DNA of 64,000 nucleotides. It comes from a virus. Taxonomy: Duplodnaviria; Heunggongvirae; Uroviricota; Caudoviricetes. Where the stretch lies: the IMG/VR virus record IMGVR_UViG_3300045988_134250. One strand, written 5' to 3'. The position numbers and the translations under genes are program-made. This document shows, one piece after another, positions 33,431 through 55,437 of the stretch. Each line of letters begins with the position of its first letter. Position 1 is the stretch's first letter. Under the pieces are notes generated by a model. That model saw nothing but the letters and a program-made list of their open reading frames with translations. It was not told the origin of the DNA and did no database searches.

Positions 33431-33462
33431 TAACTTTAAATAATGCCAATTATTTAAAGTTA
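33431..33462. other. rox recombination site (Dre target)
   Basis: taactttaaataat-gcca-attatttaaagtta: 14-bp inverted repeats around 4-bp spacer, identical to rox as recalled. Confidence 0.85.
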
Positions 33463-33672: not shown

Positions 33673-34710
33673 ATGAGTAAGAAGTCGATCGAGAAAGAGT
33701 ACAAACGGTTCCTGCAAACCGCTGAACGGTGGAAAGAGCTGGTGGTCGCAAACTCTGTTTTCCATGATACCAGTTATGCTGGCGAGGAATTCCGCCATGT
33801 TGCATTAACGCATGACCAAAACATATTAGAAGAAGCTGAAAAATGTCTTGCTGAATGGAAAGCCTTCGTTGACATGTGCCGCGATGCCGACGGCAAAGCG
33901 TCGAACATTGTTGAGTCTGTATATTCTCCGATCCCATTCATCATTGAGGACACCAATCAAAGCACGCATGTTGTTGTGCAAAGCGCTACAACAACACGTA
34001 CATTTACACGTGAACAATTGCTCAAAAAATACGACAAAATCATAAAGAAAAGCCTGAAAAATAGGGTTTTTTCTCAAATCGTAGGTGCTCTTGAAGAAGA
34101 ACAGCGCTTCTTTGAAGCTGAGCCTGAAGGCGAGATCTACCGGGCGCGTAAAGAGGCATATACAGATGTTGTGCTGACAACAAACATCGAAGGCAGCAAT
34201 GCCCTTTCTCGCTTTAGAGTTGGCGCACATGGCGCATTGGTTTTCGCAAGACTACCGAAGACAACGATCCCCGTTGTCAATAATGTTGGTGAGCGCCGGA
34301 GCATTACAATTTATTCTGGCGTCGAATCGGTACCTTGCAGCCTTCTCGGCGATTTTAACTTATATCGTGTTCGTGACCTGGAAAAACACCAGCCAAGCTA
34401 CGTTGCGAAGTCGTACATCTTAAGGAACATCGATATTCGCAATGAAAGCCTTAAGCAGAAATCCGCTAAGATGCTGGAGGATGCCGATCCGGCTATTCGC
34501 CATATCATTGAGCGTAAGATACGTACATCACGTGAAGCAATGGCAAGGCTGGATAAAATGGATCTGGAATTGTTAGACGTAATGATGGCCTCTGGAGACG
34601 ACCTGACCGGCATAAAACTGAATGAAGCTCGTAAAAAATACGGCAAAGCAATCGAAGAACGTTACGGATACACATTCCCCCAAACGCAGTACGCCGCGAA
34701 GCTCTGGTAA
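33673..34710 (+). CDS. Candidate C1-type immunity repressor (positional inference only)
   Basis: 345-aa ORF between rox/dre and pacB, the position of c1 in P1-family phages; operator-like motif at its 5' end; no motif-level confirmation. Confidence 0.3.
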   Translation: MSKKSIEKEYKRFLQTAERWKELVVANSVFHDTSYAGEEFRHVALTHDQNILEEAEKCLAEWKAFVDMCRDADGKASNIVESVYSPIPFIIEDTNQSTHVVVQSATTTRTFTREQLLKKYDKIIKKSLKNRVFSQIVGALEEEQRFFEAEPEGEIYRARKEAYTDVVLTTNIEGSNALSRFRVGAHGALVFARLPKTTIPVVNNVGERRSITIYSGVESVPCSLLGDFNLYRVRDLEKHQPSYVAKSYILRNIDIRNESLKQKSAKMLEDADPAIRHIIERKIRTSREAMARLDKMDLELLDVMMASGDDLTGIKLNEARKKYGKAIEERYGYTFPQTQYAAKLW

Positions 34711-34737: not shown

Positions 34738-36246
34738 TTATATATCCAGATCCGGCATTTCGATATCCGCCAGAACCTGATCTCGGAAAGTTGCCATTTC
34801 GGCACCAATATCTTCATTAGCAGGCACATAGTCCACCAGCATAGTGAAGCAGTAGGTATCCCATCGGTCAGGCGATTTGATGTTTAGCTTTTGCCGCATG
34901 TGCTCTTTGCGCATCATCGCCATTTTCCCTTCTTCATTCAGTAAAAAGGGGATTTTTGACGCTTGCTCTGCCGTTTTAGGGTCACTGTCTATCCGCATAC
35001 GCCCTGACTTTATGGCATCTCGCGCCATAATATTTGCGTAGGCACGCTGATTAACAAATCGCTCCCTGTCTTTGTTCGCAAACATGGGTTTTCCCCACCG
35101 AATACGTACCGGGTTCGCACCACGACGCACCAACTGCGCACACGTATCAGAACCAAAACCATCAGCATCAACCGCGATTGTTATATTCGGGTATTTTTCC
35201 GGCGTACATTCGTTATATATGAAGTCAGCAAAGGCCAATGGGTCCATAGTGCCAGGCATCTCCATTACCTTAAAGTTAACAACGCGCCGCTTATCCCTGT
35301 GACCTGATACCTTGCAGATGTTGAGGACCGACTTATCTCGCCCATTACCAACGTCAGCCGTTGCCACCCATCCCCAGTTTTTCTCCAACAACACCTTGCG
35401 GCGAGCAGAGCGATCGCATTCATCACGACCAAGCAAATAGCCGTTAATTTCTCGTGGGAACTGACCAAGCACCTTGACCATGTACTCAATAGAATCGCGC
35501 CCACCATATTCCAGAAGCTTCTCCTTGATGAATTGTGGTGTGACGAACGGTGATTCTTCCGAGTTAAGAACAATTGCTGTCCAGATCCCTTTCGGGTTGT
35601 CTGGGGTTTTTGCTCGAGAATGGTGCGAATCGTAGAAATAACCACTTGGCCTTGTTGGCTGGGATAGCATCAACATCCGGTTATCTTCTTCAGTAAGAGC
35701 ACCGGTCATTACGCCGATCGCCTTATCAGATATACCAGATGCTTCATCCAGAATTAGAAGCAAATGTGCCGCGTGTTCCCCCGCCAGCGCTTCTTCGTTG
35801 CCGAGTCGATAACCTTTGCAGAGAACTTCCCAAATCCCCTTACGGGAGCGCTCATAAAACATGGTGTCAGAGAGGACAAAATAGGTCTGCAACCACCCAT
35901 GACGCTTAACTGCATTCGCCCAATACTGTTTAACGTATTTGAATACGCCTGTTTTTACCTGGCCTATCTTGTTAGCAACAATGATGACACGGGCATCGGG
36001 GAACAGGATCATAAAAATCAACAGCAACATCGCGGTAAGGGACGACTTCCCCGTTCCGTGTCCGGACGTGACGGTCGTCCTACTCCCCGTTTCCTGCACT
36101 GACTGAATGATCTGCTGCTGCTGGTGGGAGGGGAACATCCCAAAAATATCGACTACAGCCTGGGTAAAGTTGTAGCGGTATTTGATTACCATATCGCGCC
36201 AGCGTGGATCGCTGGTGACGCATTTAATCTTGCGCCCGCCAGCCAT
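34738..36246 (-). CDS. pacB: Terminase large subunit (PacB-like)
   Basis: 502 aa; Walker A TSGHGTGKSS, Walker B LLLILDEAS; start overlaps pacA stop. Confidence 0.8.
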   Translation of the reverse strand: MAGGRKIKCVTSDPRWRDMVIKYRYNFTQAVVDIFGMFPSHQQQQIIQSVQETGSRTTVTSGHGTGKSSLTAMLLLIFMILFPDARVIIVANKIGQVKTGVFKYVKQYWANAVKRHGWLQTYFVLSDTMFYERSRKGIWEVLCKGYRLGNEEALAGEHAAHLLLILDEASGISDKAIGVMTGALTEEDNRMLMLSQPTRPSGYFYDSHHSRAKTPDNPKGIWTAIVLNSEESPFVTPQFIKEKLLEYGGRDSIEYMVKVLGQFPREINGYLLGRDECDRSARRKVLLEKNWGWVATADVGNGRDKSVLNICKVSGHRDKRRVVNFKVMEMPGTMDPLAFADFIYNECTPEKYPNITIAVDADGFGSDTCAQLVRRGANPVRIRWGKPMFANKDRERFVNQRAYANIMARDAIKSGRMRIDSDPKTAEQASKIPFLLNEEGKMAMMRKEHMRQKLNIKSPDRWDTYCFTMLVDYVPANEDIGAEMATFRDQVLADIEMPDLDI

Positions 36247-37610
36247 TAATCATCCTCCGGCGGTTCTATCGCGATATCATCATCTCCGGCGTCATACCCT
36301 GCATCAGATGCATCATAATCACCGTAAATTTCAGCCGTTGCCGAAGGGTCAATATCCAGCTCTTCGTCGTTGGCCTCGAATTCTCCAGCTTTACGCTCGC
36401 CATTGCGGTCGTAATCTCCGCACCCCAATTCTTCAACAATGGTTGCCACATCCGCCCGGCGCTCTGCCAGCCATTGCGGATGGTTAGCCTGAAGCGTTGC
36501 AAACTCCCTTGCCTCTTTGTCCAGCTGTTCATCATCAACATCATTGACGTCAGAAACAGGTGGTTCGAGAAGAGTGATAGCTTTCGCCGCGCGCGCCGCG
36601 AGGATAGCCGGGACGCTGACACCCTGGCGCTCGATGTATTCAGCAACACCGATATCATCCAGTTCCTCGCGCTCACGCATACGTATAGCGGCGGCGATAA
36701 CTCTGGCTGCGCGTGCGTCAGCGCCAATGCGATATTCAATCTCTTTGCCACGCTGTTCGGCCTGTAGGCGTGCTAATTCGAGTTTTTCTCTGGCCTCAGC
36801 CTCTTTGAATGCTTGCTGGCGAGCGCTCTGACGAAGCTTTTCATCCCCCTGTCGCAGCTTTTGTTCGGACTGATATATAGCTGCCAACCTACTGATAAAA
36901 TCATTCATGTAGTAGGCCGCGTCACTGATTAGACCGAGAAGGCGCTGCCCAGGGTGCATTCCTTCTGGCTCTTTATCGCCCAAGGCGTCTATTTCCGCCT
37001 GTAGACGTTCGGCCTCCTGATCAACAATGCTTTGATACTGAAGTGCGCGCTCTTGCGCCATTTGAATTGCTAACCGCAGGTGTTCTTCTGCGCCGTTCTT
37101 CATCATATCGCGAGCCACATTCGTAGTTGGCAATGTGGCACGCTGCACAGCACCGTCAGGGATCATTGCAGAAGATCCCTCAATTTTTGGGGCGTTTTTA
37201 TCTTCTTCGGGGATCATTTTCGCCATTTTTTCGCGCAATGATCTCCTGACAGATTCTTTTATCTCATTGTTATTATTTGAATTATTTTCATGATCCGAAG
37301 TTTTCTTTCTCGGCATACTTCGGAAAGAACCTGCGCCCTGCGAATTGTCAATTTCTGTAAATTTTGTTTTTTCTGCACCCTCTTCCAGCTTTTTTGTTGC
37401 TCTTCCCGCCCGTTTTTTTTCAGGTGATTTGGTGCTTTTTTTTGTTGTCTTTACCTGCGACCGCACCTCATTTTTTTTCATATTGAGATGCTTTCTGGCT
37501 GTATTGAAGCTAAGGCCATGCTCCTCACAGTATTCCTTTACAGTGATCCCTTTTTCTTCACGCAACGCTATAAAGCGGGCGCGGTGCTCCTCCCAATTAA
37601 CCAGACTCAT
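36246..37610 (-). CDS. pacA: Terminase small/pac-recognition subunit (PacA-like)
   Basis: 454 aa; N-terminal HTH ITVKEYCEEHGLSFNTARKHL, central coiled coil, acidic C-terminus; coupled to pacB; GATC cluster inside 5' third. Confidence 0.65.
   Translation of the reverse strand: MSLVNWEEHRARFIALREEKGITVKEYCEEHGLSFNTARKHLNMKKNEVRSQVKTTKKSTKSPEKKRAGRATKKLEEGAEKTKFTEIDNSQGAGSFRSMPRKKTSDHENNSNNNNEIKESVRRSLREKMAKMIPEEDKNAPKIEGSSAMIPDGAVQRATLPTTNVARDMMKNGAEEHLRLAIQMAQERALQYQSIVDQEAERLQAEIDALGDKEPEGMHPGQRLLGLISDAAYYMNDFISRLAAIYQSEQKLRQGDEKLRQSARQQAFKEAEAREKLELARLQAEQRGKEIEYRIGADARAARVIAAAIRMREREELDDIGVAEYIERQGVSVPAILAARAAKAITLLEPPVSDVNDVDDEQLDKEAREFATLQANHPQWLAERRADVATIVEELGCGDYDRNGERKAGEFEANDEELDIDPSATAEIYGDYDASDAGYDAGDDDIAIEPPEDD
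37155..37300. other. Candidate pac site (cluster of Dam GATC hexamers inside pacA)
   Basis: Five GATC in ~135 bp (37161, 37174, 37212, 37240, 37292), four within TGATC; P1 pac lies within pacA and consists of clustered TGATCA/G elements. Confidence 0.45.
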
Positions 37611-37999
37611 AAAGCAACACCACGCTTTTTAACGGCGGCATTCCACAGCTTATTCGCCATGTCCACCAGCTCTCGTTGCTCTTTTCGCGCCTGTTCGACT
37701 GATTTCCTGCTACAGTTTTTAACCAGTAAACTGCCATATTCAGGGGTTCGCCCACGCACCTTGAACTGATATCCGTTCAGGCCATGCAACCAGTATTTTC
37801 GTGGGTAAACACGATCATCAAGCTCACAGATTGCCCTGCTTGAACGAACAAAATGACGAATGATGTTAGTTACACTTACTCGTGAAACATGGAGATGAGG
37901 GTATTTTTCTTTGGCGAGAGTGGTAATTTCAGTGACTGTCAGATAGCAGTCAGCCCTGATCATGATATCCGCAATTTCTGCGCTGCTGATTTGTTCCAT
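37607..37999 (-). CDS. Candidate late-promoter activator (Lpa-like; positional)
   Basis: 130-aa ORF directly upstream of and coupled to pacA; operator-like motif 80 bp upstream. Confidence 0.35.
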   Translation of the reverse strand: MEQISSAEIADIMIRADCYLTVTEITTLAKEKYPHLHVSRVSVTNIIRHFVRSSRAICELDDRVYPRKYWLHGLNGYQFKVRGRTPEYGSLLVKNCSRKSVEQARKEQRELVDMANKLWNAAVKKRGVAL

Positions 38000-38107: not shown

Positions 38108-38500
38108 CTACCAGCGAGACAAACGAACAACATGTTTCACTTTTGCGATCCACTGTCCGCGATAACTATTGATTACGGCCTGTGCCAGCTTCAAATTGGC
38201 TTCAAAATCAGCCTTACTACCATCAGACTCCACCAGCATTCCTCCATCTATTTCTGGTAAACATAGATAATCCTGCTCAACCTGCAGCGGCATTGATGGC
38301 TCTCTGAATGGGGTTACTTGCTCTGCTTTCCAGCGAAATCTAACCCTTATCCCCCTGGTGGTCATTACTAGATAGCCTGTTATAGTGCTTTTATGGCCCA
38401 CATCAGTACGCGTGGCATTGCATGACTCGATCTTACAGTTAGCGATAGACCACTCCATATTGGTGGCCTGTTGAGTGCTTAATTTGGTAGTCCCGTACAT
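38108..38500 (-). CDS. Hypothetical protein
   Basis: 130-aa ORF coupled (1-nt overlap) to upstream gene. Confidence 0.45.
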   Translation of the reverse strand: MYGTTKLSTQQATNMEWSIANCKIESCNATRTDVGHKSTITGYLVMTTRGIRVRFRWKAEQVTPFREPSMPLQVEQDYLCLPEIDGGMLVESDGSKADFEANLKLAQAVINSYRGQWIAKVKHVVRLSRW

Positions 38501-39075
38501 CAGAAAGCCTCCCAGTCAGTCGCGATAATATCCACACCAGTTGCAAACCAGTCTGTCTGCGCCTGTAAATCCCCATTCATCATTACCAGGCGAGGCATCA
38601 CCATCACATCGCACCCTTCCACAATATCGAATGCCTCTTCCGGCAAGAATTCGAAGAGCTTTTCTTTGCTGCCAATACTGCCACGGAACATCGATATATA
38701 GCTCCCTTTGGGCCATGATGTCCGCCGGGCATCAAGCCCTTTCATCATCCAGTAAAAAGCCGAGGAAAAAGGGATATTCTTTTTGCCAATGATTACATTA
38801 TTCGCTTCTGTGTATTTCAGGAACTTAACTAACCTTACCATTGACTCGGATAACGCAACGTATGGCTCATGATTGATTGCTGACACGCTTACACCGTGCA
38901 ATCCAACGCTTACCACTGTCATATCGCCGCTCTGTGCGGTTTCGATATTGACGCCTTTGCGAACTAATGAGGCGTAAATTTCCTCTCGCTTTTGGGTCCA
39001 GCGTTCACGCTTCCCTATGAAGTCACTCAAAATGAGATCTTCTTCTGTATATGCGTTATCGTTCGCCATTAACAT
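38500..39075 (-). CDS. Hypothetical protein with C-terminal DUF2829-like segment
   Basis: 191 aa; FSSAFYWMMKGLDARRTSWPKGSYI...DIIATDWEAF. Confidence 0.4.
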   Translation of the reverse strand: MLMANDNAYTEEDLILSDFIGKRERWTQKREEIYASLVRKGVNIETAQSGDMTVVSVGLHGVSVSAINHEPYVALSESMVRLVKFLKYTEANNVIIGKKNIPFSSAFYWMMKGLDARRTSWPKGSYISMFRGSIGSKEKLFEFLPEEAFDIVEGCDVMVMPRLVMMNGDLQAQTDWFATGVDIIATDWEAF

Positions 39076-54301: not shown

Positions 54302-55264
54302 TCATCCCCTAAATCCCGCAGGGATTGACCAATCCTCACGGTCAAATTCAGACCGATAGCCACGCTGTTTCATCAGGTCAAAGGCTTCACCAATGGTTGC
54401 ACACCCCTGGGAGCCAGAATAATCCATTGAGAAATCTAGGGCACTGGATTGTTTAGGCTTATTCACTGCGGTAGCGGCACTACGTATCCATGCAAATTTT
54501 TTTGCCAGATTTTCAGCGGTACGATACAGAGCCTGCCGTTTTGCGTGCCCCTCGTCTGAACGACGCTTTGCAGCTCTCGCTTTTGCCGCCGCCAGGCAGT
54601 GGTTGGTATGTTCTTCCCTGATTACTGGTTTTTTATCCAGTACCCCGTTATCCGTTTGAGAACTATCTGCAGGTGAAGCCTTTGGCTGAACCGCGCATGA
54701 TCTTTCTCTTCTTTTGGCTATAGAGTGACTCTTATTTTCTATTGGCTGTTCATTTTGAACATGGGGGGACTTGTTCAATTTGAACAGGGGGTTCCCAGTT
54801 TCAAAAAAATAACGAACCTTTGAAATCAACTGCTTAACCAGTTTTGTGGCGTTGGCAAATTTGATGCCCTGCTTACCCCCTATCTCCATTGCTACATGAA
54901 TGAAGTGGAGAAATTGTGTCGTAAACCGATATACGTTACACACCTGGGCATTGTTATTCGCTACCTGATGTTGCTTAACAAGCATTCCGCACTTCGTCGC
55001 TTCAGCAAATGCCCGGCGCACAGTAGAAATACTGCGTCCTGTAATCTCGGACATATCAGCATATGAGCGACGGATCATGTATTCATCGGTAGACCCTGCC
55101 AGGTTGGCGAACTCGGCAATAATGGCGCTATGTGAAGGGGAAAGAAGACCGCTATGACGAGCAAAAAAACTCAACTGATGACCTTTGATTTTTTTGTGGT
55201 ATTCAGTGTTGTTTTTATACTCAGAAGTGTTGAAAGTTACTGAAACTGAATTTAAAATACTCAC
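54302..55264 (-). CDS. HTH-containing protein, candidate RepL-like replication/regulatory protein
   Basis: 320 aa; N-terminal region ...SYADMSEITGRSISTVRRAFAEATKCGMLVKQ...VCNVYRF; operator-like motif upstream. Confidence 0.35.
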   Translation of the reverse strand: MSILNSVSVTFNTSEYKNNTEYHKKIKGHQLSFFARHSGLLSPSHSAIIAEFANLAGSTDEYMIRRSYADMSEITGRSISTVRRAFAEATKCGMLVKQHQVANNNAQVCNVYRFTTQFLHFIHVAMEIGGKQGIKFANATKLVKQLISKVRYFFETGNPLFKLNKSPHVQNEQPIENKSHSIAKRRERSCAVQPKASPADSSQTDNGVLDKKPVIREEHTNHCLAAAKARAAKRRSDEGHAKRQALYRTAENLAKKFAWIRSAATAVNKPKQSSALDFSMDYSGSQGCATIGEAFDLMKQRGYRSEFDREDWSIPAGFRG

Positions 55265-55437
55265 CAGATAGTTCCGTGAAAAAATCTATCTACCGTATAA
55301 ATCTATGGCAGTGGATTTATACACCCAAAAAGCCGCTGAGAAGCGGCTTTTGCTTTTTTGGCAGTCGCTACCGGAGCAGTGACCGCGATCCTACTCGATC
55401 CCATCCACCAGGATCAACAGTGTATATAAATACACTA

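Follow-up and report, generated by a model that had tools for sequence, protein, structure and literature searches.

A tight cluster of Dam sites (GATC) lies within pacA, the gene for the A subunit of the pacase, in a 64,000-nucleotide (nt) stretch of phage DNA (IMG/VR record IMGVR_UViG_3300045988_134250; the whole stretch is called the window below), and here we analyse this cluster as a candidate pac site. From 36246 to 37999 the window has 98.5% DNA identity to Escherichia phage D6, in which pacA, pacB and lpa are annotated, and judged from its sequence the source is a D6-like, P1-related phage-plasmid. Both pacase subunits are homologous to P1 PacA and PacB and bear these names in the D6 records; PacA is 21% identical to its P1 counterpart over the full length (E = 6e-10) and PacB is 55% identical. 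Genes and recombination site follow the order lpa-pacA-pacB-c1-rox-dre, compared with lpa-pacA-pacB-c1-lox-cre in P1. The rox site is found 3.8 kb downstream of the cluster in the direction of pacA transcription, which is the same relative position as that of lox in P1, where pac and lox are 4.0 kb apart.

Table 1. Positions of the candidate pac array, its elements and the surrounding features in the window (R, A or G; W, A or T)
Feature	Position	Strand	Remarks
Array of five GATC-core repeat elements, candidate pac recognition region	37158-37299	minus	pacA nt 312-453
Element AGGGATCATTG	37158-37168	plus	pacA GATC nt 447; coding strand reads M-I-P; one mismatch to RGGGATCWTTT
Element AGGGATCTTCT	37170-37180	minus	pacA GATC nt 434; read as G-S; D6 clade only (window, L004, L005)
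Element GGGGATCATTT	37209-37219	plus	pacA GATC nt 396; read as K-M-I-P; perfect 11-mer consensus
Element GGAGATCATTG	37236-37246	minus	pacA GATC nt 368; R-S here, G-S in relatives
Element TTCGGATCATG	37289-37299	minus	pacA GATC nt 316; read as S-D-H
Possible sixth element AGGGATCACTG	37541-37551	minus	pacA GATC nt 63, in the region coding for the helix-turn-helix
Non-GATC island TAACAATGAGATA	37260-37272	minus	pacA nt 339-351, between elements 316 and 368
Island TTACAGAAATTGAC	37347-37360	minus	pacA nt 251-264, hypervariable linker
pacA	36246-37610	minus	454 amino acids, 1365-nt open reading frame; pacase A subunit, small-terminase-like DNA-recognition subunit
pacB	34738-36246	minus	502 amino acids; pacase B subunit; directly downstream of pacA
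lpa, late-promoter activator	37607-37999	minus	PF25716, E = 5e-57; immediately upstream of pacA, as in P1
c1	33673-34710		
rox, 32-bp Dre recombination site	33431-33462		exact sequence match and D6 annotation
dmt-like fused methyltransferase	247-2607	minus	786 amino acids; C5-cytosine domain, then Dam-family N6-adenine domain

The five GATC sites start at 37161, 37174, 37212, 37240 and 37292 and are spaced, from nt 316 of pacA onwards, by 52, 28, 38 and 13 bp. An earlier note on this DNA had described five Dam sites within about 135 bp in the 5′ third of the gene, and this is exact: they span 37161-37295 (135 bp), corresponding to nt 316-450 of 1365 or 23-33% of pacA. It had also pointed out that four of the five occur as TGATC. 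Although this count is right when either strand is read, the form is not distinctive, as 52% of all GATC sites in the window are TGATC; we therefore rejected TGATC as a meaningful motif, the conserved feature being GGATC. The window as a whole carries one GATC per 273.5 bp (234 sites, compared with 253 ± 14 expected from shuffles) and is neither enriched nor depleted. The expectation that the cluster exceeds this background held in part. It is the densest four-, five- and six-site GATC cluster both in the window and in the whole D6 genome, the next tightest five-site span in the window being 270 bp (overlaps excluded), and for a stretch fixed in advance the Poisson probability of at least five GATC in 135 bp is 1.6e-4. 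However, scanning with uniform placement gave P ∼0.25 for the 64-kb window and 0.31 for the 91-kb D6 genome, so the count alone is within chance at this scale and we rejected any claim of significance from counts. The case for the cluster rests for this reason on its position and on comparison with relatives.

The D6-family set used for this comparison comprised pacA of relatives with 94, 74, 67, 55, 48, 42 and 34% PacA identity and 37 distinct D6-type sequences. PacA consists of a conserved N-terminal helix-turn-helix region (approximately residues 1-50), a basic hypervariable linker (approximately 55-160) and a conserved C-terminal part, and the GATC cluster falls in the hypervariable linker. 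In eight lineages, down to 42% identity, just 17% of the linker columns are invariant, yet none of these lineages departs from GATC at nt 368, 396 or 447. The nt 396 site is invariant as GATCC in all lineages, the 34%-identity clade included, and the nt 316 site occurs in the D6 clade and has an aligned equivalent in the 34%-identity clade. Across the D6-type sequences, the array positions are conserved in 35 of 37. Synonymous positions inside the sites are frozen while neighbouring residues vary: Ile is encoded by ATC in 8/8 lineages at nt 396 and in 7/7 at nt 447, compared with 27% elsewhere in the same genes. The residues adjoining nt 396 range over M/K/V and P/R, and the variation over these sites together is M/K/V-I-P/R/S and G/R-S. 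At nt 368, GGA or AGA is followed by TCA in 7/7 lineages. Gly is GGA in 6/6 cases (14% background), Ser is TCA in 7/7 (17%) and Lys is AAG in 4/4 (32%).

Shuffling of synonymous codons yielded fewer GATC than observed in every lineage, with P ranging from 0.06 to <0.0003. Applied to the proven P1 site, the same shuffling returned only P = 0.085, which marks it as a conservative test, adaptation of the protein to the sites being the reason. As a positive control, the diverged P1-group phages L048 and L049 retain TGATCA hexamers in unchanged positions while their linker proteins differ. Together, these data indicate that the GATC sites are kept by selection on DNA rather than on protein, and the cluster is very probably a functional DNA element. 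As such, it offers a clean example of a DNA signal that constrains both codon choice and amino-acid sequence inside a gene.

The sites also share their flanks. Across the D6 family, GGATC (on either strand) occurs at 67 of 71 array sites, compared with 38% of other GATCs, and orienting 45 sites on GGATC gave the consensus RGGGATC(A/T)TTT, an element of ∼10 bp. According to its frame and strand, this single element is translated as G-D-H, G-S-F or K-M-I-P. As it appears in three frames and on both strands, protein constraint cannot produce such recurrence. In every lineage, the elements run ‘forward’ on the upstream side and ‘reverse’ on the downstream side. The element at nt 396 is the sole perfect match to the 11-mer in 64 kb; with at most one mismatch, there are eight matches (one perfect and seven with one mismatch), three of which lie inside the array, and the same fraction, 3/8, holds for the GGGATCWT octamers in the window.

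Sister lineages of D6 (L006-L010, L043) carry two sets of sites, the left one at nt 157-207 and the right one at nt 380-471. Of these, the right-hand set is kept in the D6 clade, where single elements at nt 316 and possibly at nt 63 stand in place of the left one. The nt 63 GATC is confined to this clade without a left-hand set, and its membership of the array is uncertain.

We extended the comparison to the PacA superfamily. A tblastn search with PacA against the phage collection returned D6 as the sole match, and a profile search of genome contigs with the PacA alignment returned no matches; further PacA lineages were recovered with PacB as an anchor, giving 22 lineages, P1 included. All 22 have a GATC array at pacA nt 130-540, with 16.4 sites per kb compared with 3.9 per kb in the rest of the gene; among other P1-superfamily phage-plasmids, array density ranges from 9.7 to 34 sites per kb. 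Gene position and GATC core are the same as in the window, whereas the flanks go by lineage: TGATCA in most, CGATCA or CGATCG in others and GGATC in the D6 family. For example, in L197-type arrays six TGATCA repeat with a period of exactly 12 bp (nt 154-214) and two more lie at nt 363 and 379, the L240 array has nine CGATCA among 14 GATC sites at nt 187-520 with a perfect IHF consensus in a gap at nt 410, and the L232 array is made of CGATCG/TGATCG. Most of these arrays are two-sided, in contrast to the D6 clade with its right-hand set and the elements at nt 316 and 63. One might tentatively read this as a methylatable GATC core that is fixed throughout the superfamily, with flanks serving as a lineage-specific code; on this view, the D6 family would have adopted an asymmetric ∼10-bp element, RGGGATCWTTT, in inverted orientations, and the D6 clade would make do with an array on one side. 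The rule of a constant core and varying flanks across 22 lineages is testable, and it bears on how methylation control and sequence specificity are divided within one site.

In P1, the pac site also lies inside the linker-coding part of pacA. Its hexamers occupy nt 195-234 and 325-353; between these two sets are the IHF site (256-268) and the cuts (276-284). It is an experimentally defined site of 161 bp with seven TGATCA/G repeats (PMC10028697). We consider it likely that the GATC cluster in the window is the recognition array of the pac site of this D6-like phage and the counterpart of P1 pac. The two share a cluster of GATC-core repeats in the linker-coding part of homologous pacA genes, the gene order, a recombination site ∼4 kb downstream and an encoded Dam-family methyltransferase, and in both the sites are kept while the protein linker diverges. 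The methyltransferase of the window matches PF02086 (E = 2e-55, profile positions 1-252 of 253) and PF00145 (E = 1e-36), and its C-terminal 297 amino acids match the E. coli Dam structure 2g1p (E = 1.6e-58). These matches identify its C-terminal domain as a full-length Dam homologue, to which GATC specificity is assigned by homology.

The comparison with P1 in the earlier note, which had proposed a methylation-regulated pac site, is thus borne out as far as the place in pacA, selection at the DNA level, the occurrence of an array in 22/22 PacA lineages and the phage's own Dam homologue are concerned. The likeness to the P1 hexamers that it had drawn turned out to be superficial. The five hexamers of the window are GGATCA, AGATCA, TGATCC, GGATCT and TGATCC, none of which is TGATCA or TGATCG on either strand; the motif is instead GGATC, extended to RGGGATCWTTT. 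The window element is asymmetric and occurs in both orientations, whereas that of P1 is the palindromic TGATCA; there are five or six elements rather than seven. Neither the two-sided P1 layout of 4 + 3 hexamers around a spacer of ∼90 bp nor a clear IHF site is evident. In the broad sense of a GATC-core array within pacA, the array would be a pac site of the P1 kind; by a narrow definition that includes hexamer sequence, two-sided layout and a clear IHF site, it is not. As a probable pac site, it would be a further instance of an established mechanism, with another repeat as its unit (GGATC-type as opposed to TGATCA). A recognition site within the gene for the DNA-recognition subunit is likewise found in the headful phages P22, SPP1 and Sf6, whose pac sites are embedded in their small-terminase genes. 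Those sites are not known to be built on Dam sites or to be under methylation control.

In the mechanism that we propose, elements of ∼10 bp with the consensus RGGGATC(A/T)TTT and a Dam site at each core are written into the DNA that encodes the variable PacA linker. The pacase, PacA/PacB, would bind these elements late in infection and cut the concatemer within or beside the array; a weakly founded guess places the cut in the 46-bp gap between the elements at nt 316 and 368 (∼37245-37290). Headful packaging would then proceed toward pacB, c1 and rox, which would bring rox into the terminal redundancy and allow Dre to circularise the incoming DNA. P1 packaging runs from pac toward lox, and it is because of this direction that lox lies in the P1 terminal redundancy; rox and Dre would follow the same principle. 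Methylation of the adenines in the GATC cores, carried out by host Dam and the phage Dam-family enzyme, would be expected to be required for cutting and to time it, and by homology of mechanism we lean towards such a dependence. For P1, the pacase has been proposed to bind hemimethylated pac, with further methylation proposed to promote cleavage (PMC10028697). Moreover, P1 needs Dam methylation at pac, and dmt is essential in dam-minus hosts (PMC12707154).

Several points weigh against this interpretation. Besides the scan probabilities and the lack of P1-type hexamers given above, no pac site is annotated in the D6 GenBank records, nor was a description of a D6 pac site found in the literature searched, although the papers likeliest to mention one lie outside that search. 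L026 and L041 have each lost one array GATC by a single T-to-C change (GAGACCA at nt 368 and TGACCC at nt 396, respectively), which reflects either tolerance of loss or decay in defective prophages. The D6 clade, including the window, is without the left set at nt 157-207, and P1 needs its left set for efficient cutting. An IHF consensus with at most one mismatch was not found in or beside the array, and most family members are likewise without a consensus IHF site. The GATC specificity of the phage methyltransferase is a matter of homology. Finally, the central island at nt 339-351, which is conserved, resembles the P1 IHF site AAACAAAGAGTTA, but its similarity to the IHF/cleavage core of P1 is not significant on its own (P 0.02-0.8). 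It departs from the IHF consensus at two positions, and the corresponding islands of L010 and L011 do so at one. The island is a candidate centre or bending site.

Two candidates for P1-like details near the array were rejected. A perfect IHF consensus, TATCAAAGCATTG, lies on the minus strand at 37025-37037 and is directly followed by TGATCA (pacA nt 574-594, with TGATCA at nt 589). It is one of ten perfect matches in 64 kb and lies outside the array, and the 74% and 67% relatives conserve neither the site nor its GATC; the combination is probably incidental. The pentamer GTCAG, common to the P1 cut and to 37246-37250, is not conserved in relatives.

Contig ends were considered as a stand-in for DNA ends. 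One contig, L035 (IMGVR_UViG_2537562191_000021), has its first base at pacA nt 320, immediately after the first array GATC, and runs toward pacB. Its start looks as a pac-cut end would, but this is a single, anecdotal case in which an assembly accident is possible, and L035 is the only contig starting in the array. The apparent end of L080 proved to be a storage boundary, and one scan of metagenomes with a 17-mer gave mostly chance matches and six D6-like contigs, none of which ends in the array. The 310 seemingly truncated PacA entries of 326 amino acids are no contig ends either; they come from contigs of full length on which Met129 was chosen as the start in annotation. The same choice was made for pacA in hundreds of public annotations from E. 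coli and Salmonella (326 amino acids; P0005, P0056-P0069). In these, the DNA for the N-terminal helix-turn-helix domain and for most of the GATC array passes as non-coding (region 37226-37610). As the N-terminus is conserved with P1 PacA, the 454-amino-acid PacA is the real gene.

An alternative that we regard as unlikely is that the elements bind the pacase or another Dam-sensitive factor while the initiating cut is made elsewhere, for instance at a second island in the linker (37347-37360) or outside pacA, the array being an accessory or regulatory arm. In this second island, TTACA and TGAC are invariant in eight lineages and the sequence encodes (E/K)(F/L)T(K/E)xD. In sister lineages, the two repeat sets are ∼170 bp apart and the TTACA...TGAC island lies midway between them, and of these sets the window keeps only the right-hand one. 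When the P1 IHF/cleavage core is compared with the window, its best 40-nt match is at the same island (22/40, P = 0.03), and the largest gap inside the window array is 46-48 bp, compared with ∼90 bp in P1. On the other hand, the P1 cut lies between hexamer sets, and in every D6-family lineage it is the nt 339-351 island that GGATC elements flank on both sides. The conservation of TTACA...TGAC could come from protein constraint as well as from DNA constraint. Just upstream of the array, the stretch that takes the place of the left-hand GATC set of the sister lineages (37367-37478) contains five A-runs of 6-8 bases on the coding strand of the pacA linker, the first four exactly 23 bp apart (37367, 37390, 37413 and 37436).

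Less probable still, and in our view very unlikely, is that the array is a regulatory element of the Dam/SeqA type, for instance one that controls pacA/pacB expression in response to methylation or one that senses replication through sequestration. Clustered GATC sites do serve at replication origins and at methylation-sensitive promoters, and it is the GATC core that stays constant within the element throughout the family. As in the Dam/SeqA clusters of E. coli oriC and P1 oriR, the array would present dense GATC whose methylation state is read by a protein. However, those clusters adjoin DnaA or RepA sites, whereas here the array lies in a terminase gene, has extended flanks that are specific to the lineage and shows no origin features. 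A promoter or terminator explanation was rejected, as the array contains no promoter-like site and, on the antisense strand, just one weak hairpin resembling a terminator. SeqA needs only hemimethylated GATC; the extended asymmetric flanks (RGG...WTTT), differing by lineage, point to a phage-specific binding protein. In addition, the equivalent array of P1 is by experiment a pac site (PMC10028697).

The absence of any DNA-level function, with the cluster arising by chance or as a by-product of the peptide motifs M-I-P, D-H and G-S, was already disfavoured and seems most improbable: although the window-wide scan would allow it, codon shuffles predict 2.5 GATC in the stretch from the amino-acid sequence alone and M-I-P occurs twice in the peptide, it is opposed by the frozen synonymous positions amid varying residues, by the same 9-11-nt element in three frames and on both strands, by an array in 22/22 lineages despite turnover of individual sites and by the same signature in the proven P1 site.

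If the flanks do act as a lineage-specific code, D6 pac together with its pacase would make up a packaging system free of cross-reaction with that of P1, just as Dre/rox and Cre/lox do not cross-react. A pac/pacase pair with an element unlike that of P1 could serve as a second, independent system for phagemid delivery. D6-like phage-plasmids are common in E. coli, Salmonella and Shigella, and one search for them matched 119 plasmid records; knowledge of their pac site helps to explain packaging and possible transduction of host or plasmid DNA.

Three further regions of the window deserve mention. The 786-amino-acid fusion of a C5-cytosine and a Dam-family domain resembles P1 Dmt, and the D6 reference splits this region into D6_63 and D6_64. 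With the TTG start that is listed, its open reading frame shares 89 nt with the RdgC gene; the true start probably lies further downstream. Two genes upstream of lpa, the minus strand at 38500-39075 encodes a 191-amino-acid protein with a Tad2-like (Thoeris anti-defence 2) domain (PF11195, E = 9.5e-10), and the gene keeps this position in L004, L005, L007 and L008. Finally, an intergenic stretch at 55387-55415 holds three GATC in 29 bp, all of the GGATC type (GATCC, GATCC and GGATCA). This trio lies just upstream of a repL-like open reading frame (54302-55264, minus strand) and adjoins the inverted repeat GTGTATATAAATACAC; it may be a methylation-sensitive control region or part of a lytic origin.

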